Positions 16,311 through 64,000 of a stretch of DNA of 64,000 bases are shown one piece after another. How positions within the stretch are numbered: the stretch's first letter is position 1; each line of letters opens with the position of its first letter. The position numbers and the translations under genes were made by a program. Source of the stretch: Elusimicrobiota bacterium (GTDB lineage: Bacteria > Elusimicrobiota > Elusimicrobia > UBA1565); the NCBI GenBank assembly GCA_016196755.1, contig JACPXC010000039.1, positions 10,645 to 74,644 of the forward strand, written 5' to 3'. The notes under the pieces are model-generated. The model did not search any database. It was not told where the DNA came from and worked only from the letters and a program-made list of their open reading frames with translations.

Positions 16311-16321
16311 GGATTATACGT

Positions 16322-49453: not shown

Positions 49454-50106
49454 AGAGCGTGCTCGTCTTCGCGAAGGCCCCCGTGCCCGGAGCGGTGAAG
49501 ACGCGTCTGACCCCGCCGTTCTCGGCCGAGCAGGCCGCCGGCCTCTATCGGGCCATGGCCGCCGACTGCTTGGGGGCGGCCGAAGCGGTCCCGGGGGCGC
49601 GGGTCAGAGTGGCCTATCAGCCCGCGCCGACCTGGCCGGACCCGTCATGGCTGAAGATCCCGGCCCCGGACTGGTTCCCGCAGGCGGGGGCCGACCTCGG
49701 ACGCCGCTTGGCCGCGGCCACGGAAAAGGCCTTCGTCGACGGCGCCGAGCGCGTCGTCGTCATCGGAACGGACTCCCCCCAGCTCGCCCCGGCCACGATC
49801 GAAGAGGCCTTCGCCCGTCTGGCCGCCGCGCCGCTGGTCCTGGGCCCCGCCGCCGACGGCGGCTACTACCTCATCGGCCTGCGCGAGCCGGCCCCGAGCT
49901 TGTTCGATGACGTCCCTTGGTCCACCGCGGGAGTCCTCAAAGCCACTCAGCAGCGGGCCGCCGAGCTGCATTGGCCCGTCCATCTGCTCGATGAGCTCGA
50001 GGACGTCGATGACGCCCCCTCCCTGGCCCGCATGCTGGCCGCCGTGAAAGGCGCCCCGCTGGCCCTGCGTACCCAGACGGCCATCGCCGACCTCACCCGG
50101 CGCTGA
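49450..50106 (+). CDS. DUF2064 / TIGR04282-like putative transferase
   Basis: Part of track ORF 48397-50106, from GTG 49450 (GTGA overlap). VLVFAKAPVPGAVKTRLTPP, VVVIGTDSPQL, LGPAADGGYYLIGL, VPWSTAGV, LEDVDD. Confidence 0.7.
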   Translation: MKSVLVFAKAPVPGAVKTRLTPPFSAEQAAGLYRAMAADCLGAAEAVPGARVRVAYQPAPTWPDPSWLKIPAPDWFPQAGADLGRRLAAATEKAFVDGAERVVVIGTDSPQLAPATIEEAFARLAAAPLVLGPAADGGYYLIGLREPAPSLFDDVPWSTAGVLKATQQRAAELHWPVHLLDELEDVDDAPSLARMLAAVKGAPLALRTQTAIADLTRR

Positions 50107-50107: not shown

Positions 50108-51307
50108 TCAGGTTCCAGAAAACAGGTCGGCGGGGTCGGCGAGGAAGAATTCCTCGAGGGGCATCCCCCCGGGTCCGACGATGAACGGCCGGGCTTCAGG
50201 CCATAGCCGCTTGAACGCCCTCAGGCCGGCGCCGTCGCCGGGAGCGGCGCCCGACTTGACCTCGATGGCCCACAGAGCCCGCGGAGTCTTCACCACGAAG
50301 TCCACCTCGCGGTCCCGCTCGCGCCAATAATAGACCTGACTGGTCGTGGGGTCGAGCGCCCCCAGGAGATGCCCTCCCACTGCGTTCTCCACCAAGCGGC
50401 CGCGCCAAGCCGGGTCGCGCAGCGCGCGCTCACGCGGCTCCCCCAGATACGCCGTCACGAGGGCGTTGTTGCGAAAGACCAGCTTCGGGCTGCCGGCGCG
50501 CTTGCGGCCGCGCCCGGCTTTGTATAGGTCGAGCCCGCCCACGAGGAACGCCGAGTCCAACAGGTGGAGGTAATGCGCCAGGGTCGTCGTATTGCCGGCG
50601 TCCTGGAGTTGTCCGAGCATCTTGTTGTAGGAGAGGATCTCGGCAGGGTGCGAGACGGCGAGTCCGAAAAGATGGCGCAGCAAGGCGGGCTTCGCCACCG
50701 CCGCCAATTGGAGGACGTCGCGCGAAAGGACGGTCTCTATGAGCGAGTCCGTGATGTAGCGGCGCCAGGACGCCTCGTCCGCCTTTAAGACCGCCGCGCC
50801 GGGATAGCCTCCGAAATACAGCCAGTCTTCCAGGTCCCAGCCGAAGGCTTCGCGCATCTCGCCCAACGACCAATGGCCGCATTGATAAGAGAGGAAGCGG
50901 CCGGCCATGCTCTCCGCGAGGCCTTTCTGGATGAGAAGGCTCGATGAGCCCAGGAGCAGTACCCGGATGGCGCGGCTTTCCCGCCTGGCGCGATCCCAAA
51001 GCAGTTTGATCGTCTCGCTCCAGCCGGACACCTTTTGAATCTCATCGAGCACGAGAAGGACGCGGCCATCGCGCCCTCCTCGGGCCAACGCTAATTCCCA
51101 CTGGGCATGGATCCATTCCGGGCCGGGAGGCAACGGGGCGTCGGCCGCCGCGAAGACGGTCTCGCCCTTCCAGGTCCGGCAGATTTGCTGGGCTGCCGTC
51201 GTCTTTCCGACTTGCCGTGGTCCGGTGATGATATGAAGGAAGGGTAATTCCGTCGCTAATGCTTCCTCTATTTTCGCGACGAGGGGGTGCTTGTAAATAT
51301 TACTCAT
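50108..51307 (-). CDS. AAA-family ATPase with DUF4143-type C-terminal domain (paralog 1)
   Basis: Track ORF 50108-51346 trimmed to ATG 51307 (MSNIYKHPLV). Walker A ITGPRQVGKTT and Walker B LLVLDEIQKV. C-terminal EVDFVV...AIEVKSG is nuclease-fold-like. Confidence 0.8.
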   Translation of the reverse strand: MSNIYKHPLVAKIEEALATELPFLHIITGPRQVGKTTAAQQICRTWKGETVFAAADAPLPPGPEWIHAQWELALARGGRDGRVLLVLDEIQKVSGWSETIKLLWDRARRESRAIRVLLLGSSSLLIQKGLAESMAGRFLSYQCGHWSLGEMREAFGWDLEDWLYFGGYPGAAVLKADEASWRRYITDSLIETVLSRDVLQLAAVAKPALLRHLFGLAVSHPAEILSYNKMLGQLQDAGNTTTLAHYLHLLDSAFLVGGLDLYKAGRGRKRAGSPKLVFRNNALVTAYLGEPRERALRDPAWRGRLVENAVGGHLLGALDPTTSQVYYWRERDREVDFVVKTPRALWAIEVKSGAAPGDGAGLRAFKRLWPEARPFIVGPGGMPLEEFFLADPADLFSGT

Positions 51308-51346
51308 TGGTTGAGTAATTATACTCAACGATTGAGTAAAATGCAA
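51300..51346 (-). promoter_or_regulatory. Promoter of ATPase-1 overlapped by four alternating TGAGTAA half-sites
   Basis: Minus strand: TTGCAT (51346-51341), 17 nt, TATAAT (51323-51318), 10 nt, ATG. Half-sites at 51300-06 (rc), 51312-18, 51322-28 (rc) and 51333-39, about 10.5 bp apart. Confidence 0.6.
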
Positions 51347-51358: not shown

Positions 51359-51766
51359 TCAGGGCAGGATGTGAAAGCCGGCGCAGTGGGCCGGCCGGAA
51401 GCTGGAGAAGTGCCGTCTATCCAGCGTCGCCAGACGAACCAGCTTGAGGCGCTCTGCCGTAGCGATGACGGCCGCGTCCACCATCCCCAGGTCGGGACGC
51501 CGGCGCGCGACCTCGATGATCCGCCCCAAGTCCCGCGGCTCGCTCCAGGCCACGGTCAGCTCGCCGGCCGCGAGGCTCTCAAGGAAGCTCAACTCCGCGG
51601 CGGCTCCGAGGAACTTGTTGGCGAGGTAGCACACCTCCGGGAGGACAGGCGAAGGGACGATGAAAGGGCCGCGCTCCCGGCCCAGCACCGCGCGCGCGGC
51701 GCGGTGGTGCGGATCGTCGCGGTCGAGAAGGGCGACCAGGAATCCCGTGTCCGTCAGGACGGCCAT
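51359..51766 (-). CDS. vapC: PIN-domain toxin (VapC-like), second copy
   Basis: MAVLTDTGFLVALLDRDDPHH is a PIN N-terminus. 1-nt overlap with the antitoxin stop. Confidence 0.8.
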   Translation of the reverse strand: MAVLTDTGFLVALLDRDDPHHRAARAVLGRERGPFIVPSPVLPEVCYLANKFLGAAAELSFLESLAAGELTVAWSEPRDLGRIIEVARRRPDLGMVDAAVIATAERLKLVRLATLDRRHFSSFRPAHCAGFHILP

Positions 51767-52062: not shown

Positions 52063-52326
52063 TCAGCGATCGAGTAAATCGTGAAAGAGGCTGTTCTGAA
52101 ACGCAGCGAGCCTGACCGGCGCCGGCTCGGCCGCCCGACGAGCCGCACGCGCGATAGCGCGCAACTGCCGCTCAAGGAAACGACAGGACGGGCAGATCAG
52201 CAGGTGCAGCCGTGCCAGGAGCCACGAAACCCCCGGACTTTCGAAGTCCCCCTCCGCCCGGCGGCGGGCGAAAGCGCGGCAGTCGAACATCGGCCTCACC
52301 GGGTCCCCCAACGCTTCTCCAGGCAC
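52063..52326 (-). CDS. Short zf-HC2-type anti-sigma factor (no obvious TM segment)
   Basis: H-x3-C-x2-C (LHLLICPSCRF) directly downstream of the ECF sigma gene. ATG 52290 (MFDCRAF) is an alternative start that removes the overlap. Confidence 0.55.
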   Translation of the reverse strand: MPGEALGDPVRPMFDCRAFARRRAEGDFESPGVSWLLARLHLLICPSCRFLERQLRAIARAARRAAEPAPVRLAAFQNSLFHDLLDR

Positions 52327-52862
52327 TCGCGCAGACGGTGTCGGGCACGGAAGAGCAGGACCCTCAGGTTAGTGTCGGAGACTTCCAAGACGTTACGGAT
52401 CTCCTCCGGCTCCAAGCCCTCGACCTCCTTGAGCTGGAAGGCCGCCCTCTGCGCCTCGGGAAGTTCCCCGAGGCAGGCCTTGATGTGCCCCTCGGTCTCG
52501 GACGCCGCGGCCTCTTCGTCTGGCCCCTTAGGGGGCTTGGCCCAATGCCCGTCGCCCGAAAAGCGCCGCTCGAACACTTCGTCGACGGGGTCGGTAGCGA
52601 CCTCGCGGGCGCGCAGCCGGCCGCGTTCCTTGGCCTTGAGGTACAGGATGCCGAAGAGATAGGTCCGGACCGAGGAGCGCCCCTCGAACCGGTCGAGCCC
52701 CGCCAGGAAGGCAGCGAAGGCCTCCTGCGCCAGGTCCTCGGCCTCGCCTTCGCCGAGCCCCAGAGCCATGGCCCCGCGCAGGAGCGGGCCGGAATTCTCG
52801 CGGACCACGGCCTCCAAGGCCTCCCGCTTCCGGGCACGCAGGTCGGCCAGAGAAGGCTCCAC
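52296..52862 (-). CDS. ECF-type RNA polymerase sigma factor
   Basis: Region 2 (DLAQEAFAAFL...) and region 4 (LPEAQRAAFQLKEVEGLEPEEIRNVLEVSDTNLRVLLFRARHRLRECL). GTG start 52862-52860 lies 6 nt after TAGAAT (52874-52869). Confidence 0.85.
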   Translation of the reverse strand: MEPSLADLRARKREALEAVVRENSGPLLRGAMALGLGEGEAEDLAQEAFAAFLAGLDRFEGRSSVRTYLFGILYLKAKERGRLRAREVATDPVDEVFERRFSGDGHWAKPPKGPDEEAAASETEGHIKACLGELPEAQRAAFQLKEVEGLEPEEIRNVLEVSDTNLRVLLFRARHRLRECLEKRWGTR

Positions 52863-52892: not shown

Positions 52893-52921
52893 TTGACAGC
52901 ACGGCGGGGGACCCCTACACT
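52893..52921 (+). promoter_or_regulatory. Promoter of the REC-OmpR-MotA-MotB operon, leaderless geometry
   Basis: TTGACA (52893-52898), 17 nt, TACACT (52916-52921), TAGCGC, GTG 52928. Confidence 0.65.
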
Positions 52922-52927
52922 TAGCGC

Positions 52928-53305
52928 GTGAGCACCAAGGTCTTGGTCGTTGACGACGACGAGGAATACCGGGGCATCGTGGTCGGGGCCCTCAAGACCG
53001 GGGGCTTCGAGACCGTCGAGGCCGACTGCATGGCCCAAGGGCTCGAGGTCTACCGCAAGGAGCGCCCCGAGGCCGTGGTCCTCGACGGCCAGCTCCCCGA
53101 CGGCGACGGCTTCGCCCTCTGCGCCATCCTGCGCAAGGAACCGGGCGGCGAGAAGCTGCCCGTCCTGCTCTGCACGATCCGCGGCTCCTTCGAGGAGGTC
53201 GTGGCCGGCCTCTCGGCGGGGCCCGACGACTACGTGGTCAAGCCCTTCGACGACCACGAGCTGCTGGCGCGCCTGCGCTCCGCGATCGACGCCCGCAAGA
53301 CATGA
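52928..53305 (+). CDS. Stand-alone receiver-domain response regulator (CheY-like)
   Basis: KVLVVDDDEEYR, AVVLDGQLPDGDG and YVVKPF receiver motifs. 125 aa, no output domain. Confidence 0.9.
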   Translation: MSTKVLVVDDDEEYRGIVVGALKTGGFETVEADCMAQGLEVYRKERPEAVVLDGQLPDGDGFALCAILRKEPGGEKLPVLLCTIRGSFEEVVAGLSAGPDDYVVKPFDDHELLARLRSAIDARKT

Positions 53306-54009
53306 AGGGGGCCCGCGTGGCCGTCGTCGAGGACGAACCGGGCTGGCTCGAGCTCCTCGAGCGCTCCTTGGGCGCGGCCGGCTTCGACGTGGCGGGCTTC
53401 GCGTCCCCCCTCAAGTTCCTCAAGTCCATGGCCACCGAGGTCCCCGAGGCCGCCGTCGTCGACATGCTCCTGCCCGGGATGGACGGACGCGAGGTCATCC
53501 GAGTCCTGCGCCGCGAGCCGCGCACGCGTCTGATCCCCATCGTGGCGATGACCGCCTCCGAGGTCTCCCCCAACTCGGCGGTCTCCGGCATCACGGCCGG
53601 CGCCGACGAGTATTTCCGCAAGCCCTTCGAGCCCGAGCTGCTCGTCGTCCGTCTCCAGGGGCTGCTCCAGCGCCGCCTCGGCGAGCCCGCGCCGTCCCCC
53701 GAGGCCGGCCTCCAGGACGACGGCATCTCGCTTTCTTTCGACAGCCGGGCCTGCACGGTGGACGGGAAGGGCCACGAGCTGACCCGGCTCGAGTTCGAAC
53801 TGCTCACCCATTTCCTGGGCCAGCCGGGCCGCGTCTACACCCGCCGCCACCTGCTGGACGCCTTCTGGCCCGGGCGCGTCCACAGCGACGGCCGCTCGCT
53901 CGACAAGCACGTCCAGCGCCTGCGCAAGGTCCTCGGCCGGCATTCCGACCGCCTGCAGACGGTCTACGCGGTCGGCTATGTCTGGCGCTTGAACGGAGGG
54001 ATGAAGTGA
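53302..54009 (+). CDS. OmpR-family response regulator
   Basis: VAVVEDEPG, AAVVDMLLPGMDG and YFRKPF motifs. Winged-helix output (LTRLEFELLTHFLGQPGRVYTRRHLLD...VGYVW). ATGA overlap with the upstream gene. Confidence 0.9.
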   Translation: MKGARVAVVEDEPGWLELLERSLGAAGFDVAGFASPLKFLKSMATEVPEAAVVDMLLPGMDGREVIRVLRREPRTRLIPIVAMTASEVSPNSAVSGITAGADEYFRKPFEPELLVVRLQGLLQRRLGEPAPSPEAGLQDDGISLSFDSRACTVDGKGHELTRLEFELLTHFLGQPGRVYTRRHLLDAFWPGRVHSDGRSLDKHVQRLRKVLGRHSDRLQTVYAVGYVWRLNGGMK

Positions 54010-54776
54010 ACCTCTCGCTCTGGCTCGGCTTGGGCGTCGGCACCGGCCTCCTGGCCTGGGGCGCGGCCAGCGGAGAGGCCGGCGGCTTCCTCAACACCCA
54101 CGGGATATCGGTCGTCATCGGCGGGACGCTGACGGCACTCCTGGCCGGCACCCCGATGGCCACGCTGGTCAGCTCGGTGCGCCGCGGCCTCGGACTCTTC
54201 ATGGCCGACCGGACGCCGACCCTCGAGGCCGCCATGGCCGAGGTCCTGCGTCTGGCCCAGGCCGCCCAGGACGGCGGGGGCCTGCTCTCGATCCAGGACG
54301 AGGCCCGCGACTTCGCCGAGGGCTTTCTGCACCGCTGCGTCCGGGTCGCCATCGCCTGCGGCGAGACCTCGGACGCACGGCGCGTGCTCGAGGAGGACAT
54401 CCGCCAGCGCCGCATCCTGCGCAACGAGGACGCCAACGTCTACCGCACGGCCGGCATGCTCTCGCCGATGTTCGGCATCCTGGGGACCCTGATCGGGATG
54501 ATCCAGGTGCTCTCCAAGCTCAACGACCCCAGCAAGGTGGGCCCCGCCATGGCGCTGGCCCTGTCCTCGGCCTTCCTCGGCATCGCCATCGCCAACATCC
54601 TCTGCATCCCGCTCGCCGGCCAGATCCGCATGTGGGCCATGAAGGAATCCCTGGTCCTCGAAGTCATCCTCGAGGGCGTGCTCAACATCGCCCTGGGCCG
54701 CCCCCCCATCGTCGTCGAGATGCGCCTGGCCTCCTACCTCGGCGCGCGTCCCACGCCGGCCGGCCGCCCCAAATGA
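54006..54776 (+). CDS. motA: MotA/PomA-type stator channel protein
   Basis: Part of track ORF 52950-54776, from GTG 54006 (GTGA overlap). Two N-terminal TM segments, a ~100-aa cytoplasmic loop, then MLSPMFGILGTLIGMIQVL...PAMALALSSAFLGIAIANILCIPLAGQI, which is the MotA/ExbB/TolQ core. Confidence 0.85.
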   Translation: MNLSLWLGLGVGTGLLAWGAASGEAGGFLNTHGISVVIGGTLTALLAGTPMATLVSSVRRGLGLFMADRTPTLEAAMAEVLRLAQAAQDGGGLLSIQDEARDFAEGFLHRCVRVAIACGETSDARRVLEEDIRQRRILRNEDANVYRTAGMLSPMFGILGTLIGMIQVLSKLNDPSKVGPAMALALSSAFLGIAIANILCIPLAGQIRMWAMKESLVLEVILEGVLNIALGRPPIVVEMRLASYLGARPTPAGRPK

Positions 54777-55390
54777 GCGTCTGGTACGAGCGCGAGGACG
54801 AACTGGAGGCCAACCTCAACCGCGGGGCCATGTGGAGCGTCACCTACGGCGACCTCATGAGCTACCTGGCGATCTTCTTCCTTCTGATGTATTCCGCCTT
54901 CGCCAGCAACGCCGTCAACATGCAGATGGACCTCAACGCGATCAAGGACCACTACAACAAGGAGGCCGACCTGTTCTCGCGCCACGGCATCCAGCAGATC
55001 GCCAAGCTCGAGGTCGGCGAGGACCGCATGCGGATCCTCTTCTCCGCGCCGGTGCTCTTCGACCCCGGCGAGGCCGACCTCAAGCCCATGGCCGAGGAGC
55101 ACCTTAAGAAGCTGGCCGCCGCCCTGCAGGAGCTCCCCAACCCCATCCAGATCGAGGGCCACACCGACGACCGGCCGCTCGGCAGGCACGCCGGCTTCAA
55201 GGCGAACTGGGAGCTCTCCGCCGCCCGCGCCTTCGCGGTCCTGCGCTGCCTGGAGCGCAACGGCGTCCCGTCCTCCCGCTTGGCGGCCATCGGCTACGGG
55301 GAGCATAAGCCCGTCGCCCTCAACGACACCTCGACCGGGCGCGAGGCGAACCGCCGCATCGAGATCAACCTGCTCAGGCGCCGGGAGTAG
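54773..55390 (+). CDS. motB: MotB-type stator protein with OmpA-like peptidoglycan-binding domain
   Basis: Part of track ORF 54632-55390, from ATG 54773 (ATGA overlap). WSVTYGDLMSYLAIFFLLMY includes the conserved TM Asp. NWELSAARA...RLAAIGYGEHKP...GREANRRIEI is OmpA-like. Confidence 0.88.
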   Translation: MSVWYEREDELEANLNRGAMWSVTYGDLMSYLAIFFLLMYSAFASNAVNMQMDLNAIKDHYNKEADLFSRHGIQQIAKLEVGEDRMRILFSAPVLFDPGEADLKPMAEEHLKKLAAALQELPNPIQIEGHTDDRPLGRHAGFKANWELSAARAFAVLRCLERNGVPSSRLAAIGYGEHKPVALNDTSTGREANRRIEINLLRRRE

Positions 55391-55397
55391 GCGGGCC

Positions 55398-57527
55398 TCA
55401 GGCCGGCTTCGCGGGCTTCGCGTCGCGCTTGGCCTGCTTCTCGGGCAGCCAGAACTGGAACACGCTGCCCTTGCCGAACTCGCTCTCCACCCAGATCCGG
55501 CCGCCGTGCGTCTCCACCACCATGCGGCAGACCGTGAGGCCGAGGCCGGTCCCGCGGGCCTTAGCGTTGACCTTGGTCTCCTCGACCTGGAAGAACTTCT
55601 GGAACAGTTTGCCGACCTTGTCGGCCGGGATGCCGGCGCCGGTGTCGCGGACCTGGACGAGGACGCCGTCGTGGTCGCGCTTGGCGCAGACGCTGACGGT
55701 GCCCTTCGACGGCGTGAACTTGAGGGCGTTGGAGATCAGGTTCTGTACCACGCGCTGGACCTGCGAGGCGTCCATCTCCAGCGGCGGCAGGTCCGGGGCC
55801 GCCTCGAGGCGGAGCTGGACCTCCTCCTTGGCCGCCTGGACCGACAGGAGGCCGTGGACGGCCTCGAGCACCGGAAAGAGCGGGGCGGGCTTGTAGTCCA
55901 GGGTCATCATCCCGGACTCGAACTTGGACACGTCGAGGATGTCGTCGACCAGGTGCGAGAGTGTCCTGGCGGCGTGGGTGATGACGGTAGCGCGCTTGCG
56001 GTGCTTCTCGCCTAGGGCGTTGTCGCCGGTGGCCTGGCCGGCCATCAGCATGAGCTCGGCCATGCCCGAGATGGAGGCCAGGGGGCTGCGCAGGTCGTGG
56101 GTGACGGTCTCGAGGATGTTCTGTTTGGTGCGCTCGACCTCCTTCTCGTAGGTGACGTCGCGCAGGATGAGCAGGATCCCCACCTCGCGCCGCTCGGCCC
56201 GTACCACGATCCCGCGCGCCGCGACCTGGCGAGGCTCCGTGCCCGCCGTGGCGCGCAGCTCGAACTCCGCGTTGCCCGCCTCGCGCTTGCGGCCGAGCAT
56301 CGCCAGAGCGAGGTCCCGCAGGGGTCCGGCCGGCAGGGCGCGGTGGACGCTGAGCTCCGTGCCCTCCGTGCCGCCCAGCATCTCCGCGGCCGAGGCGTTG
56401 GTGAAGGTGATGCGCCCGTCGAAGCCGGCCAGGACGATCCCGTCGGGGATCGTGCGGACCAGGGCGTCGACGCGCGACTTCTCCTCGAGCGTGCGCTCGA
56501 TATGGAGGTCCTGGACCTCCCGCAGGCGGCCGATCATCGTGTTGAAGGCCACGGCCAGGCGTTTGAGCTCGCCCCAGGCCAGTTCGGGGACGGGGGTCGA
56601 GAGGTCGTTGTCGGCCGCGCGCTCGGCGCCGGCCAACAGCGCGCCGATCGGGTCGGTCAGGCGGGCCGCGAACCAGGCGGCGAGGATCGCCACCAAGCCC
56701 ACCAACAGGCCCATGAACGCCGCCGCGCGGCCGGCGAACTCCGTGCCTACCGAGAGGGCTTCCGCGCGCGGCTGGAGGCTCATGACCCGCCAGTCGCCCG
56801 AGGTGGCGCCGGAGTAGGCGCCGACCATCCGGCCCGACGGCGCCGGGATGTCGGCCAGCCAGCCCGAGGCTTCGCCCAAGCGCACCGGCGGCCGCCAGGT
56901 GGGCGGCAGGAAGCCCTCGGCCGAGCCCTTGAGCGGACGGCCGTCGGCGCCCAGCACGACGACCCGGCCGGCGCGGCCGGGCTTGAGGGCCCCGAGCCGC
57001 TTCCAGAGCGGGGCCAGGTCGAAGGCCCCGTAGAGGAGCCGGCCGTCGAGCAGGGGGTAGGCGAAGACCAGCGCCGGGCGCCCCTCGATGATGGCCGGTT
57101 CGTCTAGGACCAGACGCCCGGTGGACTGGGCGCGCTTGACCAAGTCCTCCCCGGAGCGGTCGACGAGCTCCGGAGACTTGAAGACGGCGACGTCGGCCAG
57201 GCGGACGCGCTCCTTGCCGTCGAGGCTCAAAGTCGAGAGCAGGATGAAGGGCGGCGTGGCGGACGCGGCGCGCTGGAGGATGGCGAACTCCTTCTCGGGG
57301 GCTTTCGAGCCCAGACGCTCGAGGTCCTCGACGAAGCTTAAGCCCCGGTTGAGGCGGCCCACGGTGTCCTCGACGGTCGAGGCGGCCAAAGCCGTCAACT
57401 GCTCGTGGAGGAAGCGCGCGTTCTCCTCGGCGCGGCCCGTGGTGCGCAGGAACCAGGCCCCGGTGACGCCTACCGGGACGATCCCGACCGCGAGGAAGAC
57501 GACCAGCAATCGGCCGAAGAGGCCCAT
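55398..57527 (-). CDS. Membrane sensor histidine kinase (periplasmic domain, HAMP, PAS, HisKA, HATPase)
   Basis: Two TM segments flank a ~250-aa periplasmic region. HAMP (PIGALLAGAERAADNDL..), PAS (IPDGIVLAGFDGRITFTNASAAEMLG), H-box THDLRSPLASI, N/G boxes (NLISNALKFTP, VRDTGAGIP, GTGLGL). Confidence 0.92.
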   Translation of the reverse strand: MGLFGRLLVVFLAVGIVPVGVTGAWFLRTTGRAEENARFLHEQLTALAASTVEDTVGRLNRGLSFVEDLERLGSKAPEKEFAILQRAASATPPFILLSTLSLDGKERVRLADVAVFKSPELVDRSGEDLVKRAQSTGRLVLDEPAIIEGRPALVFAYPLLDGRLLYGAFDLAPLWKRLGALKPGRAGRVVVLGADGRPLKGSAEGFLPPTWRPPVRLGEASGWLADIPAPSGRMVGAYSGATSGDWRVMSLQPRAEALSVGTEFAGRAAAFMGLLVGLVAILAAWFAARLTDPIGALLAGAERAADNDLSTPVPELAWGELKRLAVAFNTMIGRLREVQDLHIERTLEEKSRVDALVRTIPDGIVLAGFDGRITFTNASAAEMLGGTEGTELSVHRALPAGPLRDLALAMLGRKREAGNAEFELRATAGTEPRQVAARGIVVRAERREVGILLILRDVTYEKEVERTKQNILETVTHDLRSPLASISGMAELMLMAGQATGDNALGEKHRKRATVITHAARTLSHLVDDILDVSKFESGMMTLDYKPAPLFPVLEAVHGLLSVQAAKEEVQLRLEAAPDLPPLEMDASQVQRVVQNLISNALKFTPSKGTVSVCAKRDHDGVLVQVRDTGAGIPADKVGKLFQKFFQVEETKVNAKARGTGLGLTVCRMVVETHGGRIWVESEFGKGSVFQFWLPEKQAKRDAKPAKPA

Positions 57528-57552
57528 CGGCGGATACTATACCAAGGGTCTT

Positions 57553-58698
57553 TCAGGAGATATAGTCGCCGGCCCAGAGCCTCTCCAGAAACAGCCTCCA
57601 AGGAAGCACTTCGACCCCCCCGGCGATCCGGCGCGGCTCCAGCTCCAAGCCGACGACCACGCGCCGCTTGACCGGGCCGTCCTCGATGAGGGCCGCGAGC
57701 GAGCGGGTATCACCCTCATGGACCCGGGCCGAGCCCTTTACCTCGACGGCCAGTTCCTTGTCGCCGAAGATGAAGTCCACCTCCTGGCCCGTGCTGGTCC
57801 TCCAGAAGGCGATGGGATGGTCCGGCTTCCTGTAGGCCTGGTAGGCACGCAGCTCCATCAGGATGAAGTGCTCGAAGGATTTCCCGAAGTCGGAGCTTCC
57901 CGGACGCGGGACGCGCCGAGCCAGATGGTTGGCGACCCCCACGTCGAACAGGTAGAACTTCTCGGTCAGGATCATGCGGCGGCTCGGGGACCTCCGCCAA
58001 GGCTGGAGGCGGAACCCGAGATAGGTGTCCTCGAGGATGTCGAAATAGTTCCGGACGATCCGGGCGGAGACGCCGGACTCGCGCGCCGCGTTGACGTAGT
58101 TGAGCAACTCGCTGCCGGTCCGGGCCGCGACGAGCAGGAACTCCGAGAAGGCCGGGATACCGCGGCTCAGGGCCTCCACGGCGATCTCTTCCTTGAGGTA
58201 GTCCGCGACATAGGCCCGTAGGTCTTCTTCCGGCCGCTCCGAGAGGAAATGCGGCGGGAGGAGGCCCGAGGTCAGGGCACGTTCCAGGTCGAAGCCCTCC
58301 GTTTCCAGCGCCGAGAGCGGCAGCAGGGTCCGGCGCCAGGCCCGACCGCCCAGGAGGTTCGCGTGGCCGCGGCGGAGCTTACGGGCGCTCGAGCCCGTCA
58401 TCAGGAACGAGCATCCGGCGTTCTCGATGAGCCAATGGACCTCGTCGAGCAGGGCCGGGACCTTCTGGATCTCGTCGAGGACGATGAGGCCGCGATGCTC
58501 CGAGAAGCGCTCCCGCAGGAGGGCAGGCCGCGCGGCATAGTCGGCGAAGACGTCCGTCTTGAGCAGGTCTACGACGGCCGCGTCGCGCAGGTGATGGCGG
58601 ATCCAATAACTCTTGCCGGCCTTGCGGGGACCCCAAAGGAACGCCGATTGGCGGGGCGGAAGGCCCAGCTCGAAGAGGCGCTTGCATATCTTACGCAC
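57553..58698 (-). CDS. AAA-family ATPase with DUF4143-type C-terminal domain (paralog 2)
   Basis: Walker A LWGPRKAGKSY, Walker B LIVLDEIQKV. C-terminal EVDFIFGDKELAVEVKGS. GTG start 58698-58696. Confidence 0.8.
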   Translation of the reverse strand: MRKICKRLFELGLPPRQSAFLWGPRKAGKSYWIRHHLRDAAVVDLLKTDVFADYAARPALLRERFSEHRGLIVLDEIQKVPALLDEVHWLIENAGCSFLMTGSSARKLRRGHANLLGGRAWRRTLLPLSALETEGFDLERALTSGLLPPHFLSERPEEDLRAYVADYLKEEIAVEALSRGIPAFSEFLLVAARTGSELLNYVNAARESGVSARIVRNYFDILEDTYLGFRLQPWRRSPSRRMILTEKFYLFDVGVANHLARRVPRPGSSDFGKSFEHFILMELRAYQAYRKPDHPIAFWRTSTGQEVDFIFGDKELAVEVKGSARVHEGDTRSLAALIEDGPVKRRVVVGLELEPRRIAGGVEVLPWRLFLERLWAGDYIS

Positions 58699-58704
58699 AA
58701 TGTA

Positions 58705-58733
58705 ATTTTATCCGGATAATCTGCCTTAGTCAA
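58705..58733 (-). promoter_or_regulatory. Promoter of ATPase-2, leaderless geometry
   Basis: Minus strand: TTGACT (58733-58728), 17 nt, TAAAAT (58710-58705), TACATT, GTG (58698). Confidence 0.65.
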
Positions 58734-58760
58734 GCCGGCCCGCCGCAAGCAGTTCCTCCT

Positions 58761-59738
58761 TTATGACAGAGTAGGCTGCTCCGGCCCGCTGGCCGGGATG
58801 GCCAGGGTCACGCGCGCGCCGCCGCCCGGAGGGTTGGCGGCGTCGGCATCCCCTCCGGCCCGCCGCGCCACGCGGCTGGCCAGGGCCAGCCCCACGCCGA
58901 GGCGGCCCGGCTTGGGAGACGCGAACGGAGTGAAGGCCGAAGCCAGCGCTTCGGGCGAGAACCCCGGTCCGCTGTCGGCCACCTCGATGACGGCCCGGCC
59001 GTCCTCGCCGCGCCGCACGGCCACGCTCAGCGTGCCGCCGCGCGGCATGGCCTCGAAGGCGTTGCGGACCAGCTCGAAGAGCGCCGTGCGCAGGCCGTCC
59101 GCGTCGACCCGTACGCGCAGGCCGACCCCGCCGCGACGGCGCAGCGCCACGCCGCGCGAGCGCAAGGTGGGCTCCCAGGCCGCCAGGACGGCGTCGACGA
59201 CCGCCTGCAGAGGAGTGTCCTCCAGCACCCGGCCGTCGTCGAGGAGCAGCATGACCAGCCGCAGACGGTCGCGCGCGCGGGCCAACTCCGTGGCGGCCAG
59301 GCGCAATAGAGCCTTGGAGCCCTCGGGAAGCCGTCCTCCCCCGGCCCGGCGCACATGGGCCAGCGAGCGGGCCAAGGTGCCGTCGAGTTCCCCCGCCACG
59401 CGCAGCCAGGAAGGCTCGAGCAGAGGGTCGAGGCCGGGAGCGGGGGCCTCGGCGAAGCCCGGCTCCGCCTCCGGTGCCGTGGGAGCGGCCGGGGCGGCGG
59501 GAGCCTCGGGTGCTACGGGCGTCGTGAAGACCGCCTCCTCCAGATTCACGGGGAGCGCGGGAGCGGCAGGCGCGGCGGGCGTGACCGGCAGGACCGGCGG
59601 AGCGGGCTTTAGGAGCTTCGTCGGAAGGCGCAGGCGCTCGATGAGGGAGCGGACCTCGCCGACCAGGGCGTCGGTCGCCGGGTCGAGCGGCTCCCGGCCG
59701 GCCCCCTCGCCGCCCGCCGTCGAAGGACCGTCGGTCAT
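58761..59738 (-). CDS. Soluble histidine-kinase-like ATPase (HATPase_c) protein with Pro/Ala-rich N-terminal region
   Basis: C-terminal part of track ORF 58761-60719, from ATG 59738 (ATGA overlap with the upstream gene). N box LFELVRNAFEAM, G1 VADSGPGF, G2 GVGLALA. Only a weak H-box candidate (SLAHVRR). Confidence 0.65.
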   Translation of the reverse strand: MTDGPSTAGGEGAGREPLDPATDALVGEVRSLIERLRLPTKLLKPAPPVLPVTPAAPAAPALPVNLEEAVFTTPVAPEAPAAPAAPTAPEAEPGFAEAPAPGLDPLLEPSWLRVAGELDGTLARSLAHVRRAGGGRLPEGSKALLRLAATELARARDRLRLVMLLLDDGRVLEDTPLQAVVDAVLAAWEPTLRSRGVALRRRGGVGLRVRVDADGLRTALFELVRNAFEAMPRGGTLSVAVRRGEDGRAVIEVADSGPGFSPEALASAFTPFASPKPGRLGVGLALASRVARRAGGDADAANPPGGGARVTLAIPASGPEQPTLS

Positions 59739-61240
59739 CAGATGAGGCTCGCGGCGCCCTCGCCGCCGAGGACGATCAGGCCGCGCTCCGACATCGCGCG
59801 CGCCTCGGCCAGGATCCGGCCGCGGGCGGCCATGACCTTGTCGCGGGACTGCGGCTGGCGCAGGACCGAGCCGACCACGGCCTTGACCTCCAGCGGGAAC
59901 TCGGCGAGGATCTTGTCGGAGAGGTCGGCCGTCGTGCCGCGCAGGGCCAGGCCCCAGACCTCCTGGGGGACGGCGGTGATGAGCCGGCGCAGGTCGCGGC
60001 GCTCGAGGCCCGCCAACGCCTCGAACGGGAACAGGGCCGACTCCACGTCGCGCGCCGCGTCGGGGTCGCCGCTGATGAGCCCTCCCAGGACCTCCTCGCG
60101 GGTCTCCGGCGGGACGCGGCTGAGCAGGGCCCCGAGCCGCCGCGGCCCCTCGATCCCGCTCTCGAAGCGCGCGCGCAGGCGCTCCTCGAGGTCGTCGACC
60201 TTGCGCGGGTCGGCCTCGGAGAGCCGGGCCAGCGCCGCCGCCACGGAGGTCTGCAGCGGCGGGGGCAGGGACTCGAAGAGCCGGCCGGCGGCGTCCGGGG
60301 CGCTCTCGGATATCTGGGAGAAGAGCAGAGCGAGCTCGTCGGCGTTCTCCGAGGCCAGCCGCCGGGCGGCCTCCTGGGGCTCCCTTTCTATTAGGAAGTC
60401 GAAGCGCCGCCCCAAGGCCGGCAGGCGTCCGCCCGCCGCCAGCGACGGGTCGGCGCCGAGGTCGGCCAGGGAAGGCAGCCCGCCCCCCAAGAGCTCCATG
60501 GGACGCTCGGGCCCGGACGCGGCGCCGCCCTGGACCGAGGTCTGGGGGATGCGCTCGAAGCGTGAGCTGGCGATGGTCCCCAGCTCTCTCAGAAGGATGC
60601 GGACGCCGCGCAGGCCCGCCAAGACCACGATGGAGGCCAGGAGCAGGCCGCCGAACAGCCCGCCCGCCAGAAGGGCGCCCAGGCGCACGCCCTCGCTCGT
60701 GAAGGCCAGCGCCTTCCACGCCGGCATGAGGTCGGCGCGCAGGACCGTCAGGTCGTCCTCGCGCTCGGCCGCCAGGCGCAGGAGGTCGGGCAGAAGGCGC
60801 CGCACCGCGTTCTCCTGGGCCGCGGTGACCTTGCTGTCGATCACCACCGTCACGTTGACGCGCTTTATCTGCAGGCCGGGGTGGCGGGTCGAGCGCTCGA
60901 CGTCCTTCTGCACGAACTGGATCTCCGACTTGTCGTCGGCGATGGCCGCGTAGCCCGGCAGCTTGTCGCCGGCCAGGCTCGGGGGCTTGAGGACCGGCGT
61001 CACGACCTCCGACTGGGTCTGCACCTCGCTGATCTCGCCCTGGACGGTGACGAAGACCCGGGCCCGGCCCGGACCCAGCAGGCCGTCGAGGAAGTCGCGG
61101 GCCTGGCGCTCCATGCGCGCCGCGGCCTCATCGGACTCGGCGGCCGCGTACGCCGGGGCGCCGTGCCCCAGGATGGCGACCGCGGCCAATAGCGCCGCCG
61201 TTCTCATACCCCCCCAGGATGCCATGGCCCTATGACGCAT
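59738..61240 (-). CDS. FliF-like (MS-ring, YscJ/FliF family) periplasmic domain + TM + FliG-like middle and C-terminal domains in one polypeptide
   Basis: The start may be ATG 61207 (MRTAALLAAVAILG). Periplasmic hallmarks: GRARVFVTV and PGLQIKRVNVTVVIDSKV...EDDLTVLRADL. TM segment: GALLAGGLFGGLLLASIVVLAGL. Cytoplasmic part: ENADELALLFSQISE.. (FliG_M-like) and LFPFEALAGLERRDLRRLITAVPQEVWGLALRGTTADL...ERGLIVLGGE (FliG_C-like). Confidence 0.7.
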   Translation of the reverse strand: MRHRAMASWGGMRTAALLAAVAILGHGAPAYAAAESDEAAARMERQARDFLDGLLGPGRARVFVTVQGEISEVQTQSEVVTPVLKPPSLAGDKLPGYAAIADDKSEIQFVQKDVERSTRHPGLQIKRVNVTVVIDSKVTAAQENAVRRLLPDLLRLAAEREDDLTVLRADLMPAWKALAFTSEGVRLGALLAGGLFGGLLLASIVVLAGLRGVRILLRELGTIASSRFERIPQTSVQGGAASGPERPMELLGGGLPSLADLGADPSLAAGGRLPALGRRFDFLIEREPQEAARRLASENADELALLFSQISESAPDAAGRLFESLPPPLQTSVAAALARLSEADPRKVDDLEERLRARFESGIEGPRRLGALLSRVPPETREEVLGGLISGDPDAARDVESALFPFEALAGLERRDLRRLITAVPQEVWGLALRGTTADLSDKILAEFPLEVKAVVGSVLRQPQSRDKVMAARGRILAEARAMSERGLIVLGGEGAASLI

Positions 61241-61288
61241 TTGTTGCCGTAGCGGCGACCGAGCGTTATCGCGAGGAAGTGCCGCATC

Positions 61289-62632
61289 CTAGGCCTTGGA
61301 GGCGGCCGGTCCTGAGACGGGGAAACGGACGAGGAACGTGGAGCCCTTGCCCGGGGCGGAGTCCAGGCGCACGTCGCCGCCGTGGAGCTCGGCCACGCGC
61401 TTGACCAGGGCCAACCCCAGCCCCGTGCCGGGCCCGCGGGTACCCTTGACGCGCTCGAACGGCCGGAACAGGGACTTCTGGGCCTCGGCCGGGATCCCCG
61501 CCCCGGTGTCGGTCACCGCCAGCTCCAGGGTCCGGCCGTCGGCCCCCTTGCGGGCCGAGACCCGGACCCTCCCCCCCCGCGGGGTGAACTTGATCGCGTT
61601 GGAGACGAGGTTCGCGATGACCTGTGCTACGAGGTCGGAGTCCATGCGCGCCTGCGGGAGGTCGGCGGCCACCTCGGCGCCGAGGTCGAGCCCCCCTTCG
61701 CGGGCATGCGAGGCGAAGAAGGCCGCGGCGTCCTCGACGATGGGACCCAGGGCGGCCGGCCGCAGGCGGAGCTCCACCGACCCGCGCGCCACCTTCGCGG
61801 TCTCGAGCAGGCTCGTGACGAAGTGCTCGAGCCGGCCCAGGTTGCGCTCGAAGGACTCCAGGCGCTTGGCGGCGGACTCCGGCAGGCCGCCCTCCGAGCG
61901 CAGGTCCTTGAGGTGGTGGCGCATCGCCGCCAGCGGGGCGCGCAGCTCGTGGGTCACCGCCGCGACGAAGGTGCGCTTGGACTCGTCGAGCTCGCCCAGG
62001 CGGCGGCCCGCCTCGCGCACCCCGCGGGCCAAGCGGGCGATCTCGTCGGAGCCCGAGGCCTCGGGCGCCGAGTCGAAGCGGCCCTCGGCCAGGCCGGCGA
62101 CCGAGCGCTCGATCTCGACGAGGCGCCGGGTGAGGCTGCCGGAGAGCAGTATCGAGGCCAAGAGGCCGACCGCCGCGGCCGCCCCTCCCGAGCGCAGGGC
62201 GTCGGCCAGGAGCAGGCCGTAGGCCTTCCGGCGCCCCTCGGCCGCCGTGCCCTGGTCGATGTTGAGCTGGACGGCCGCCGCCGTGGTGCCGCCCGGCCCC
62301 GGGACCCAGGCGCTGCGTTCATCGAGCGAGTCCACGGGCCGGGACTCGCCCACGTCGCGCCAGGGGTCGCCGCCCAGGCGCACGCGCGCCGAGGCGATGA
62401 CGGGGTGGTCCTTGCGCAGGGACGCGATGGCGTCGAGGAAGGCCAGCATGTCTCCCGAGAGCACCGCCTCGTTGGCCGCGGCCTCGGCCCGGGCCACCAG
62501 CATGTTCATGCGCTCCTCGTCGGCGCGGACCAGGGCCCGGCTCTGCAGGTGCAGGAAGACCGCGGCGGCGCCGGCCGTGGCGCCGGCCATCGCCACCGCG
62601 AGGATCAAGGCCAGCTTGAGGCGTACGCTCAC
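61289..62632 (-). CDS. Membrane sensor histidine kinase (HAMP, HisKA, HATPase)
   Basis: Track ORF 61289-63028 trimmed to GTG 62632-62630 (VSVRLKLALILAVAMAG). HAMP (LTRRLVEIERSVAGLAEGRF), H-box THELRAPLAAM, NLVSNAIKFTP, VTDTGAGIP, GTGLGL. Confidence 0.9.
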   Translation of the reverse strand: MSVRLKLALILAVAMAGATAGAAAVFLHLQSRALVRADEERMNMLVARAEAAANEAVLSGDMLAFLDAIASLRKDHPVIASARVRLGGDPWRDVGESRPVDSLDERSAWVPGPGGTTAAAVQLNIDQGTAAEGRRKAYGLLLADALRSGGAAAAVGLLASILLSGSLTRRLVEIERSVAGLAEGRFDSAPEASGSDEIARLARGVREAGRRLGELDESKRTFVAAVTHELRAPLAAMRHHLKDLRSEGGLPESAAKRLESFERNLGRLEHFVTSLLETAKVARGSVELRLRPAALGPIVEDAAAFFASHAREGGLDLGAEVAADLPQARMDSDLVAQVIANLVSNAIKFTPRGGRVRVSARKGADGRTLELAVTDTGAGIPAEAQKSLFRPFERVKGTRGPGTGLGLALVKRVAELHGGDVRLDSAPGKGSTFLVRFPVSGPAASKA

Positions 62633-62636
62633 GTTT

Positions 62637-64000
62637 TCACCGTTTCTTGAGCCGCTCGAGGGCGCGGCGCGCCGGGACGTTCTCGGGGTCGAGCTGGAGG
62701 ACGCGCATGAAGGCGGCGGTGGCCTGCAGCTGCTCGCCGCGGGCGTAGTGCTCGACGCCCTTCTGGTAGAGGCGCTCGACCTCGCGCGGGTCGACCTTGC
62801 GCGGCGCCGCGATCTGGTCGGGGGAGGCGTCCAGCGCCTGCGCGGCGCGGTCGATCGGCGCCACGGCCCGGACCGGCGCGGGGGCGGCGGCCGCCGGACC
62901 GCCGGGGAGCTGGGTGGGCGCTTGGCCCAGCGCGGCGCGGGCCTTGGCCATGTACTCCTCGAGGGCGCGGCGCTCGCCGGCGTCCTTCTCCTGCGGCAGG
63001 GCCTTGTTCCAGGCGTCCAAGGCCTCATTATAGCGCCCGGTGATGTAATACGTGGAGCCCAGCCGCTCGAGCATCCGGACGTTGGCCGGGTCGAGGGTGG
63101 CGATGTCCTCGAGCAGGGCCAGCGAGCGGTCGCTGTCGCCGCGGTTGTGGGCCGCCTCGACGCGCTGCAGGAGCTCGGCCATGAAGGTCCGCGGGTGGCC
63201 GCTGGGCAGGCGCTCGGCCGGGATGCCGACGCCCTCCTCGACCTTCTTGAGGAAGTTGTCGAGCTTGGCGTCGTTGGGGACCATGCTCAGGGCGTAGGAG
63301 CCGAAGAGCACGGCCTCGCGGTCGCGGGCGTAGAGGAAGGACGAGATCATCTTGGCCAGGTTCTCCATCGCCTTCTCCGGCTTGCTCGGCTGCTCGGAGT
63401 AGTAATAGACGACCAGGCCCAGACGGTTGGCCAGGCGGTTGAGGGCGGGGTCGGCGGGCAGGTTTTTGGCCAGCTCGAGCAGGGTGCCGCGCGCCTCGCG
63501 ATAGCGGCCGACCTCGACCAACGCCTTCACGCGCGCCAGCGACGGGTCGGTCAGGTCGCGCGGCCGCAGGGCGTCGCTGTAGTCCTTGCCGTACTCGGGG
63601 TCCTTGCCCTCGCGGGCGCGGCGCACGTCCTCGAGCAGGGCCCCGCTGATCTCGTCCTCGGGCGAGGGCGCGCCGAAGTGGAAGTTGAAGGAGAACCGAT
63701 GCGTCCCCATGGTCTCGGAGATCGTGCCCATCGGCATCAGGAAGGCGTAGTCGATGCCGATCTTGTTGATCCGGTAGGACAGGCCGGCCGAGACCTGGCG
63801 GAACTCGCGGCTGCCGATCCCCAGGCCGCCGCGGACGCCGAAGTTCCCGCCGGTCAAGGACGGGAAGAAGCGCTCGACGCCGACCAGGATGTCGCGGTCG
63901 GCCGAGCCGGAGGGGCCCTTCACGCTGCGCAGCTCCCCGGTCAAGTTCATCCAGAGCGCCTTGTAGGCCGCGCCGAGGCGGATGTCCATCGGCAGCTTGT
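62637..64000 (-). CDS. PorV/PorQ-like beta-barrel (C-terminal part visible) fused to a TPR-repeat region; N-terminus beyond window end
   Basis: The frame stays open to the window edge upstream of the track's ATG 63989. IDYAFLMPMGTISETMGTHRFSFNFHF parallels the C-terminus of the 27984-28862 barrel (LSYGVLPMGELGNTHRFSLGSRF). About 330 aa of TPR-like helices follow (YYITGRYNEALDAWNKAL; GVEHYARGEQLQATAAFMRVLQLDPEN). Confidence 0.6.
   Translation of the reverse strand, partial: KLPMDIRLGAAYKALWMNLTGELRSVKGPSGSADRDILVGVERFFPSLTGGNFGVRGGLGIGSREFRQVSAGLSYRINKIGIDYAFLMPMGTISETMGTHRFSFNFHFGAPSPEDEISGALLEDVRRAREGKDPEYGKDYSDALRPRDLTDPSLARVKALVEVGRYREARGTLLELAKNLPADPALNRLANRLGLVVYYYSEQPSKPEKAMENLAKMISSFLYARDREAVLFGSYALSMVPNDAKLDNFLKKVEEGVGIPAERLPSGHPRTFMAELLQRVEAAHNRGDSDRSLALLEDIATLDPANVRMLERLGSTYYITGRYNEALDAWNKALPQEKDAGERRALEEYMAKARAALGQAPTQLPGGPAAAAPAPVRAVAPIDRAAQALDASPDQIAAPRKVDPREVERLYQKGVEHYARGEQLQATAAFMRVLQLDPENVPARRALERLKKR

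Follow-up and report, generated by a model that had tools for sequence, protein, structure and literature searches.

In a 64,000-nucleotide stretch of an Elusimicrobiota contig (hereafter the window), positions 52893 to 64000 encode a MotA-MotB stator, a single polypeptide that joins parts of the flagellar rotor proteins FliF and FliG, histidine kinases, response regulators and a PorV/PorQ/PorP-like outer-membrane barrel carrying TPR helices. As a whole, this locus is best explained as encoding an ion-driven rotor-stator machine that works in the cell envelope and is not flagellar, to which we assign a probability of about 0.6. That such a machine is physically tied to the PorV/Q-TPR barrel and to surface proteins with a C-terminal domain (CTD) of the type IX secretion system (T9SS) type is held with good confidence. 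The parts that build a ring and take up torque are kept, while the parts of a flagellum are missing from the rotor protein, from the open reading frames (ORFs) scanned and from related loci; together with a preprint on the phylum discussed below, this leads to a non-flagellar reading. An earlier reading of the sequence alone (the sequence-only reading) had proposed an envelope machine unrelated to swimming. Comparative data support that proposal, and for its function we infer the proton as driving ion and secretion or movement as output.

Profile searches of the window ORFs against Pfam, with NCBIfam added for selected proteins, found every module gene listed by the sequence-only reading in its place and confirmed the identities. 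An AAA_14/DUF4143 gene had been overlooked. What had been called a HAMP-PAS kinase is one, with a dCache sensor domain in addition, and the PorV-like barrel with TPR repeats stands by way of the full-length protein and its homologues, only the last barrel strands lying inside the window. The features are as follows.

52893-52921, plus strand: match to a sigma-70-like promoter (TTGACA-17-TACACT), just 5' of the REC-OmpR-MotA-MotB operon; a consensus match only.
52928-53305, plus strand: stand-alone REC protein, 125 amino acids (aa); Pfam Response_reg, E 8e-23.
53302-54009, plus strand: OmpR/PhoB-type response regulator, REC and winged helix, 235 aa; Pfam Response_reg and Trans_reg_C.
54006-54776, plus strand: MotA/PomA-type stator A subunit, 256 aa, GTG start; Pfam MotA_ExbB, E 1e-19.
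54773-55390, plus strand: MotB-type stator B subunit, 205 aa; Pfam MotB_plug and OmpA.
55398-57527, minus strand: membrane sensor histidine kinase, dCache-HAMP-PAS-HisKA-HATPase by Pfam, 709 aa, convergent with motB.
57553-58698, minus strand: AAA_14/DUF4143 ATPase by Pfam, a passenger; PADLOC candidate defence family PDC-S01.
58761-59738, minus strand: soluble histidine-kinase-like ATPase, 325 aa, with a DHp-like hairpin and HATPase_c; Pfam HATPase_c only.
59738-61240, minus strand: FliF-FliG fusion (rotor protein), 500 aa; Pfam YscJ_FliF_C, FliG_M and FliG_C.
61289-62632, minus strand: membrane HAMP-HisKA-HATPase histidine kinase by Pfam, 447 aa, GTG start.
62637-64000, continuing past the window end, minus strand: PorV/PorQ/PorP-like barrel with TPR, C-terminal 453 of 666 aa; Pfam TPR matches.

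The rotor protein is clearly homologous to FliF and FliG, yet is without several of the features by which membership of either family is recognised. Its three Pfam matches exceed their cut-offs (YscJ_FliF_C 31 bits against 23.8, FliG_M 28.7 against 25 and FliG_C 56.9 against 23.3), and a ten-member profile of the rotor family matches the middle and C-terminal domains of T. maritima FliG among PDB sequences at E 3e-28, its N-terminal part matching a FliF chain weakly. The AlphaFold2 model has a mean pLDDT of 72, with moderate confidence outside the folded domains. It comprises, in order, a signal-peptide-like helix, an alpha/beta periplasmic domain at about residues 30-170, one long transmembrane (TM) helix, about 50 disordered residues that link this helix straight to FliG-M, and the helical domains M and C of FliG. 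At the N-terminus, the hydrophobic stretch closes with AYA-AAE and resembles a cleavable signal peptide; the database entry begins at a later Met, giving 489 aa. By Foldseek the C-terminal half matches FliG MC at 1e-9 and the periplasmic domain matches the RBM3/S-ring/collar of Salmonella and Vibrio FliF at about 3e-7 (TM-target 0.56-0.60), with a weaker match to SpoIIIAG. Neither RBM1 nor RBM2 is present, the periplasmic part of about 150 aa being wholly explained by RBM3 in the model and in Foldseek, and there is a single TM helix compared with two in FliF. Neither Pfam nor the AlphaFold2 model gives a FliG_N match. In the flagellum the export gate lies inside the rings of RBM1 and RBM2, and the FliF tail is the docking site of FliG-N. 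With these export-gate rings and FliG-N absent, the fusion cannot be an ordinary flagellar MS ring; as modelled, the covalent fusion appears to stand in for the docking of FliG-N onto the FliF tail, and no part is apparently left that would be able to hold an export gate. Engineered FliF-FliG fusions are functional in Salmonella and Vibrio, hence a fused rotor is mechanically plausible. The FliF and FliG assignments hold in hidden Markov model (HMM), PDB-sequence and fold searches, and the absent domains speak against the scenario by which the sequence-only reading had qualified itself, namely that the fusion is plainly the flagellar FliF and FliG.

A study of MotAB evolution classes stators of this kind as flagellar ion transporters ('FIT' type; PMC12505986). 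By its criteria MotAB, as judged from sequence, is a flagellar-type stator and not a generic ExbBD-like transporter, because of its large cytoplasmic interface, its plug and linker, and its OmpA-related peptidoglycan-binding domain. MotA aligns over its full length with the NCBIfam PomA, MotA and MotP models at about 132-134 bits, the PomA model spanning residues 1-247 of 256. Its matches among PDB sequences are all flagellar MotA or PomA (Paenibacillus MotA1 at 1e-33, PomA at 4e-27, then Clostridium, Bacillus, Aquifex and Campylobacter), and no ExbB, TolQ, GldL or ZorA match was obtained there at E<=0.01. Four TM helices, the second and third joined by a large cytoplasmic loop, make up the protein, which keeps both critical prolines (E. 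coli P173 and P222) and a Glu equivalent to E. coli E98. MotB carries Pfam matches to MotB_plug (31 bits, cut-off 24) and OmpA (82 bits) and also matches the NCBIfam MotD/MotS/MotB models and PDB MotB/PomB chains. Within its single TM helix the Asp of YGDLMSY aligns with the channel Asp of MotB in 6ysf. Both stator assignments of the sequence-only reading are thereby borne out by HMM and PDB-sequence searches.

The module is not a chance arrangement, because its gene order recurs in Elusimicrobiota contigs and its core in distant loci. The sequence-only reading had raised the recurrence of this neighbourhood in related genomes, and tblastn with the window's ten proteins recovers the same gene order in 17 further Elusimicrobiota contigs at 31-57% protein identity, with the core form present in the distant loci described below. 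A word-indexed search gave only ten relatives of the fusion, and a scan of one genome per species gave 15 loci, every one from an Elusimicrobiota metagenome-assembled genome (MAG). A later homologue search with a profile of 57 sequences yielded just 7 proteins, presumably an effect of its word pre-filter. In loci with enough sequence the conserved order is barrel-TPR, HAMP kinase, fusion, soluble HATPase and dCache kinase, followed on the other strand by motB, motA, ompR and REC; three Elusimicrobiota loci have the HATPase gene relocated beside motA. Without exception, the 17 related loci have the HAMP kinase gene placed after the barrel-TPR gene and before the fusion, and a dCache kinase homologue occupies the same position in 11. 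MotAB is found within about 6 kb in eight of the ten loci that extend far enough, the OmpR-type regulator is syntenic in related loci, and the REC gene is conserved beside OmpR and MotAB in L005, L007, L016 and L019.

Beyond this clade, an exhaustive profile search over 1.84 billion representatives, clustered at 50% identity, yielded 155 clusters at E<1e-30, nearly all of them 480-850 aa in length and with matches in both the RBM3 part and the FliG part. The loci of six distant members were looked at in detail. The order of the core in these loci is CTD surface protein, PorV/Q-TPR, FliF-FliG, MotA, MotB. The PorV/Q-TPR gene lies upstream of the fusion in all six (adjacent in five, four genes away in L020), as the barrel-TPR gene precedes the pair of HAMP kinase and fusion in the Elusimicrobiota clade, and in four of them MotA-MotB come next after the fusion or are separated from it by a single gene. 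CTD-bearing proteins, some of more than 2,800 aa, flank the distant modules. The conserved core is thus a CTD protein, a PorV/Q-TPR barrel, a FliF(RBM3)-FliG(MC) protein and MotAB. In L022 (10001-12529; P0261/P0187, GCA_027326945.1) the rotor protein carries a cytoplasmic HisKA-HATPase core as an N-terminal fusion, giving a protein of 842 aa that is followed by a 426-aa coiled-coil protein and then by MotA and MotB, and in other lineages TPR repeats are added at the rotor C-terminus. Such domain shuffling, in the form of kinase-rotor and rotor-TPR fusions, supports physical association.

Several features were seen in single distant modules. If it forms a ring, the kinase-rotor protein of L022 would amount to a ring of kinases tethered to the rotor. 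One module (L020 12293-13630; L021 2731-4068) has one MotA followed by two MotB paralogues in tandem, and a gene for a TolB-like PD40 propeller protein directly upstream of its rotor gene. L024 carries two bona fide PorV (PF19572) genes at 980-2829, flanked by CTD cargo that includes an S8 peptidase, and a Roadblock/LC7 (MglB-like) gene at 15798-16145, near the module. MglB-type proteins regulate polarity in Myxococcus gliding.

The partner at the outer membrane was characterised from P0011, the full-length form of the window's barrel-TPR protein (666 aa). Its AlphaFold2 model, built with 46 homologues (pLDDT 86.5), consists of a 14-strand barrel spanning residues 62-320 and, after it, TPR helices over about 340 residues, and its best Foldseek matches are FadL and the T9SS protein PorV in the translocon complexes 6h3i (6h3i_F, TM-target 0.64) and 8gl6. 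The PorP/SprF model gives 29 bits on a clade homologue, many homologues bear precomputed PorP_SprF (PF11751) matches under the NCBI name T9SS PorP/SprF, and all homologues with a named host come from Elusimicrobia or Elusimicrobiota. In the distant loci L024 and L025 the barrels exceed the PorV_fam cut-off of 90 bits, at 132 and 148. The link to the PorV family suggested by the sequence-only reading is strengthened by these two copies and by the recurrence of the barrel-TPR gene upstream of the fusion.

A Logan contig from the same sample (L028) is identical to the window's last 1,500 nt and extends it by 4.7 kb. It adds a gene for a 120-aa CTD-only protein, whose stop overlaps the start of the barrel gene, and, further upstream, a 638-aa fn3 protein. 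CTD-only proteins of 120 aa consist of a signal peptide and a single T9SS-type CTD (CHU_C/type B-like) with a TPNGDGxND motif; that of L001 matches CHU_C at 33 bits (cut-off 27). With a family-specific CTD HMM, a CTD-only gene was found overlapping or abutting the barrel gene upstream in 12 loci, L028 included. The same CTD ends larger fn3, Ig, beta-helix or DUF4082 proteins upstream in most loci, among them the giant proteins of L022 and L025, and over all loci the barrel gene is mostly preceded immediately by a gene for a CTD-bearing protein, which in the remaining loci lies close by. Elsewhere in the window, the T9SS-type cargo that had been proposed at 28859-36400 is confirmed: the protein of about 2525 aa encoded at 28859-36433 (minus strand) matches the T9SS type-A sorting domain TIGR04183 at its C-terminus with 30.2 bits (cut-off 23). 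This protein also has a polysaccharide deacetylase domain, four DUF4082 domains and Kelch propellers, and DUF4082 recurs in a CTD-cargo gene beside the module in L007.

The components that would complete either a flagellum or a T9SS were sought in the same sequences. No flagellar or chemotaxis gene beyond those of the module was found by Pfam or NCBIfam among the 40 window ORFs or fragments scanned, about ten being left out, including 48397-50106 (569 aa); the sequence-only statement that the 64 kb holds no other such gene is therefore upheld for those 40, with about ten ORFs outside the scan. The called genes of related loci have no precomputed Pfam match to flagellar families beyond rotor, MotA and MotB, and fliM/N, flhA/B, fliPQR, rod and hook genes are lacking both there and among the scanned window ORFs. 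Nor was any SprA-like translocon, PorK/N, PorU or GldLM/PorLM seen in the window or the loci. Two large proteins of the window were considered as an SprA-like translocon and rejected, the one of about 2525 aa being DUF4082/Kelch cargo and a 2673-aa ORF being without Pfam, NCBIfam or PDB match. According to a preprint by Uzun et al. on magnetotactic Elusimicrobiota, flagellar structural genes are missing from most free-living representatives of the phylum, which nonetheless possess homologues of motAB and fliG, a few Elusimicrobiota have full flagellar gene sets, and the means of movement of flagellum-less magnetotactic members is called enigmatic (10.1101/2022.07.08.499144). Its motAB and fliG genes are listed from KEGG annotation, and their role is called unclear (10.1101/2022.07.08.499144). 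These orphan genes are probably the same as those of the module. The preprint does not have the fusion, the operon, the linkage to PorV/Q-TPR and CTD proteins or the distribution beyond the phylum that are given here (10.1101/2022.07.08.499144). Apart from that passing remark on orphan motAB and fliG, no description of a module of this composition was found in the literature, in agreement with the sequence-only reading, which knew of none.

Taken together, these components suggest a molecular model for how a rotor-stator pair in the inner membrane could act at the cell surface. The fusion would assemble, as do RBM3 of flagellar FliF and FliG, into a large inner-membrane ring with a periplasmic collar and a cytoplasmic FliG ring. 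In characterised systems FliF RBM3 forms 33/34-mer rings, as seen in PDB entries, and MotA5B2 turns FliG. Here, peptidoglycan-anchored MotA5B2 units may likewise use the ion gradient to turn the ring by pushing FliG-C, and the periplasmic collar would engage the TPR handle of the barrel. The barrel in turn may hold CTD-bearing surface proteins as PorP/SprF, PorQ and PorV hold CTD partners in type IX secretion; type B CTD proteins reportedly stay bound to PorP/SprF-like barrels. Torque from the inner membrane could thereby reach surface-anchored, adhesin-like proteins and move them, a gliding-type drive analogous to GldLM-SprB/SprF. GldLM powers both the T9SS and the movement of SprB, and as a close alternative the torque may power the export or attachment of CTD proteins. 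We favour the movement of adhesins over secretion as the output only tentatively, with the odds leaning somewhat against it. The kinases and regulators would set motor activity or expression on signals, or report motor load.

Several observations weigh against a rotor-stator machine of this kind. MotA falls under the curated equivalog cut-offs (134 bits against 237 for PRK09109 and 132 against 341 for PomA), as do MotB against its NCBIfam models, the FliG part of the rotor against TIGR00207 (51.5 bits against 226.7) and a clade homologue of the barrel against PorV_fam (70 bits, E 2e-19, cut-off 90). Classical charge pairs of the flagellar rotor-stator interface are altered on both sides. The equivalents of FliG R281, D288 and D289 are E (V in a second alignment), G and S, the EHPQR motif of FliG is replaced by ENADE in the window copy, and MotA has Q at the position of R90, where no more than two relatives have R, and keeps the E98-equivalent Glu. 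These altered charges may bear on how, or even whether, MotA engages the FliG domain. Compensatory co-variation of rotor and stator charges was considered, and no convincing pattern emerged among 7-10 paired sequences in which the classical pairs are not conserved. Two loci, L013 and L015, have no motAB within 10 kb, the contact of the collar with the TPR handle is purely our inference, and the three kinase-like proteins and two regulators per module would fit signalling at least as well as mechanics.

The alternative closest to the proposed machine keeps the motor and changes its task: the rotor-stator would power the export or attachment of CTD proteins at the PorV/Q-like barrel, as a stand-in for PorLM/GldLM, with neither adhesins nor cells being moved. 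Its appeal lies in the invariable linkage of the module to a PorV/PorQ-family barrel and CTD proteins, in the further type-A CTD cargo 20 kb away in the genome, in the NCBI naming of barrel homologues as T9SS PorP/SprF, and in the fact that a 5:2 motor energises secretion in the known T9SS. We nevertheless consider it unlikely, if worth serious attention. A 14-strand barrel cannot itself translocate folded cargo, SprA-like, PorK/N and PorU components were not seen in the window or the loci, the 2673-aa ORF having no SprA similarity, and the CTD-only partner resembles a permanent anchor or plug more than a substrate. The likeness of the module to the T9SS and Bacteroidota gliding is real in that an inner-membrane ion motor is genetically tied to a FadL-like 14-strand PorV/Q/P barrel and T9SS-type CTD proteins, in that the adjacent cargo and barrel genes resemble sprB-sprF, and in that a two-component system sits at the motor locus (compare PorXY). 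In contrast to those systems, however, the motor is MotAB with a FliF/FliG ring rather than GldLM with GldKN, the barrel carries a C-terminal periplasmic TPR region, SprA, PorU, PorK and PorN are absent from the available sequence, and the hosts named so far, Elusimicrobiota, lie outside the phyla with an established T9SS.

The signalling genes of the module raise a different possibility, in which the rotor-stator would sense surface contact, envelope load or membrane potential, the soluble ATPase would read its state out to REC and OmpR, and the barrel-TPR-adhesin assembly would serve as a 'feeler'. Every module has two membrane kinases and a soluble kinase-like ATPase whose translation is coupled to that of the rotor, and motAB shares a transcript with two regulators; one lineage fuses a HisKA-HATPase core to the rotor protein; flagellar motors are, moreover, known mechanosensors. 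The genes are densely packed across the module region, at 70% G+C. A TGATG overlap joins the stop of the fusion to the start of the soluble HATPase, indicating translational coupling, the OmpR stop and MotA start share a GTGA overlap, the MotA and MotB genes overlap by 4 nt, and the GTG start of the kinase at 61289-62632 lies 4 nt past the stop of the TPR gene. Sigma-70-like promoter matches number three in 12 kb, against 0.4 expected. Within the clade the soluble ATPase (58761-59738) keeps its N, G1 and G2 boxes and a motif LEPxWxR...YAHLRRLS, while its N-terminus is variable, a short Pro-rich segment in the window copy and, at the other extreme, a coiled coil exceeding 500 aa. Its putative phospho-His is Q in L001 and D in L015, and going by these sequences it may not be a conventional autokinase. 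The REC protein at 52928-53305 has its best NCBIfam matches among PhoB/OmpR-family receivers and not the CheY type; a CheY-like reading of it was rejected since its receiver is closer to the OmpR/PhoB family, and a direct CheY-type switch role is thus unsupported. The OmpR-type regulator (53302-54009) matches NCBIfam PhoB at 150 bits, below the equivalog cut-off. A sensory function as the main role, though a rival to be taken seriously, appears rather improbable, given the substitutions at the putative phospho-His and the distant modules L020, L026 and L027, which retain barrel-TPR, rotor and MotAB with far fewer kinases. From these simpler modules, signalling looks accessory to a mechanical core.

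An ordinary or reduced flagellar motor, in which the fusion serves as fliF and fliG and MotAB as stator while the remaining flagellar genes lie elsewhere in the genome, is very improbable. The nearest characterised relatives of all four proteins are flagellar, engineered FliF-FliG fusions do function in Salmonella, and a few Elusimicrobiota have full flagellar sets. The resemblance extends to a stator that matches PomA/MotA/MotP over its full length, with plug, channel Asp, OmpA domain and both MotA prolines, and to a rotor that retains the ring-forming RBM3/collar and FliG M and C, so that the expected principle of a stator pushing a FliG ring is shared. Unlike the flagellar motor, however, the module dispenses with RBM1, RBM2 and FliG-N, has no FliM/N, type III export, rod, hook or filament genes nearby, and joins FliF and FliG in one polypeptide with a predicted cleavable signal peptide and a single TM helix. 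Its torque-helix and MotA charge pairs are altered, its constant neighbours are a PorV-like barrel with TPR, CTD proteins and kinases, and according to the preprint the structural genes of the flagellum are missing from most free-living Elusimicrobiota that have motAB and fliG. Zorya-like or other MotAB-based anti-phage defence, to which the MotB matches to PADLOC ZorB models and the candidate defence gene PDC-S01 inside the locus might point, was rejected as having next to no likelihood, since MotA (256 aa) has neither a ZorA match in PADLOC nor the long ZorA tail, ZorC/D/E-like genes are absent, the ZorB matches reflect general MotB homology and the PDC-S01 gene, the sole defence-like gene of the locus, is a window-specific insertion.

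Judged by these features, the rotor-stator module resembles the flagellar motor at its rotor-stator interface and the T9SS/gliding apparatus in its outer-membrane partners, and probably belongs to neither. The nearest described oddity is the FliF-FliG fusion of Chlamydiaceae, likewise a natural single polypeptide of a shortened FliF and a FliG-like domain in bacteria regarded as non-flagellated (Bergeron 2016, PMC4768692). The chlamydial protein differs in being about 330 aa long, in having RBM2 with no RBM3/SpoIIIAG-like domain and only a FliG-M-like domain, and in its link to injectisome genes, with no MotAB among the flagellar genes reported for Chlamydia (PMC4768692); the rotor described here has RBM3, FliG M and C, and stator linkage. 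With ExbBD-TonB, TolQR-TolA, AglRQS-Glt, ZorAB and SiiAB the module shares the sending of inner-membrane ion-motive energy to a process at the outer membrane or in the envelope. Those other 5:2 motors have ExbB/TolQ or Zorya-type stators that act through TonB/TolA/GltG-like rods or a long tail, whereas the module places a flagellar-type stator on a FliG ring. The Agl-Glt gliding complex of Myxococcus also uses periplasmic TPR proteins and outer-membrane barrels.

Of the genes around the module, the AAA_14 gene at 57553-58698 is taken as a passenger because it is missing at this position in all related loci; it has a promoter-like site of its own (58733-58705). In L001, from the Elusimicrobia MAG GCA_016207665.1, the corresponding slot holds a REC-T2SSE gene (8021-9778, minus strand) for a PilB-like ATPase with a receiver. 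A link to type IV pili was considered and set aside, this REC-PilB-like gene occurring in L001 only and TPR matches to PilW, Tgl and Amuc_1098 being generic repeat similarity. A second AAA_14/DUF4143 gene lies at 50108-51346 (minus strand; PADLOC PDC-S01, 490 bits), beside an ORF at 51359-51766 (minus strand) that is PIN-domain-like by eye. Also by eye, 52063-52862 (minus strand) appears to encode an extracytoplasmic function (ECF)-type sigma factor of 188 aa and an overlapping Cys-rich, anti-sigma-like ORF of 87 aa. The pair is divergent from the REC-OmpR-MotAB operon and recalls PorXY-SigP control of T9SS, a resemblance only; as part of the module it was rejected, not being conserved beside it in related loci. 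The rest of the window consists of housekeeping functions and two giant proteins. The 2673-aa ORF (39891-47912, plus strand) has a strong coding signal, with a third-position G+C (GC3) of 0.94, and the ORFs flanking it at 36502-37860 and 37957-39390 (both minus strand; 452 and 477 aa) are also without Pfam, NCBIfam or PDB sequence match. At 7399-16313 (minus strand) lies a fatty-acid/polyketide-type cluster unrelated to the module, with an acyltransferase, an acyltransferase/phosphopantetheinyl-transferase region, ketosynthases, KAS III and two short-chain dehydrogenase/reductase (SDR)/enoyl reductases.

The rotor protein is small, at about 500 aa, and should self-assemble, so that expressing it and viewing it by cryo-EM would put the hypothesis to a direct test. 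Whether the module should be ranked as a new class of envelope machine, namely a minimal MotAB-FliG/FliF(RBM3) motor with no flagellum that passes torque through a barrel-TPR protein to CTD proteins and is widespread in uncultivated lineages (at least 155 clusters), is in our estimate close to evenly balanced, tilting slightly towards no. FliG and stators of the flagellar type are regarded as hallmarks of the flagellum. The module, if it works as proposed, would show the rotor-stator core serving another purpose, and neither the flagellar ('FIT') stators nor FliG would be exclusive to flagella. It may represent the kind of simple rotor-stator device that gave rise to the flagellar motor or, alternatively, a radical re-use of that motor, and so bears on the old question of the motor's origin. 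It would also be a new member of the ion-driven 5:2 motors that energise the outer membrane, and would connect parts of the flagellum with barrels and sorting domains of the T9SS type in bacteria other than Bacteroidota. For the Elusimicrobiota, including their flagellum-less magnetotactic members, it would offer a candidate mechanism of motility or secretion.

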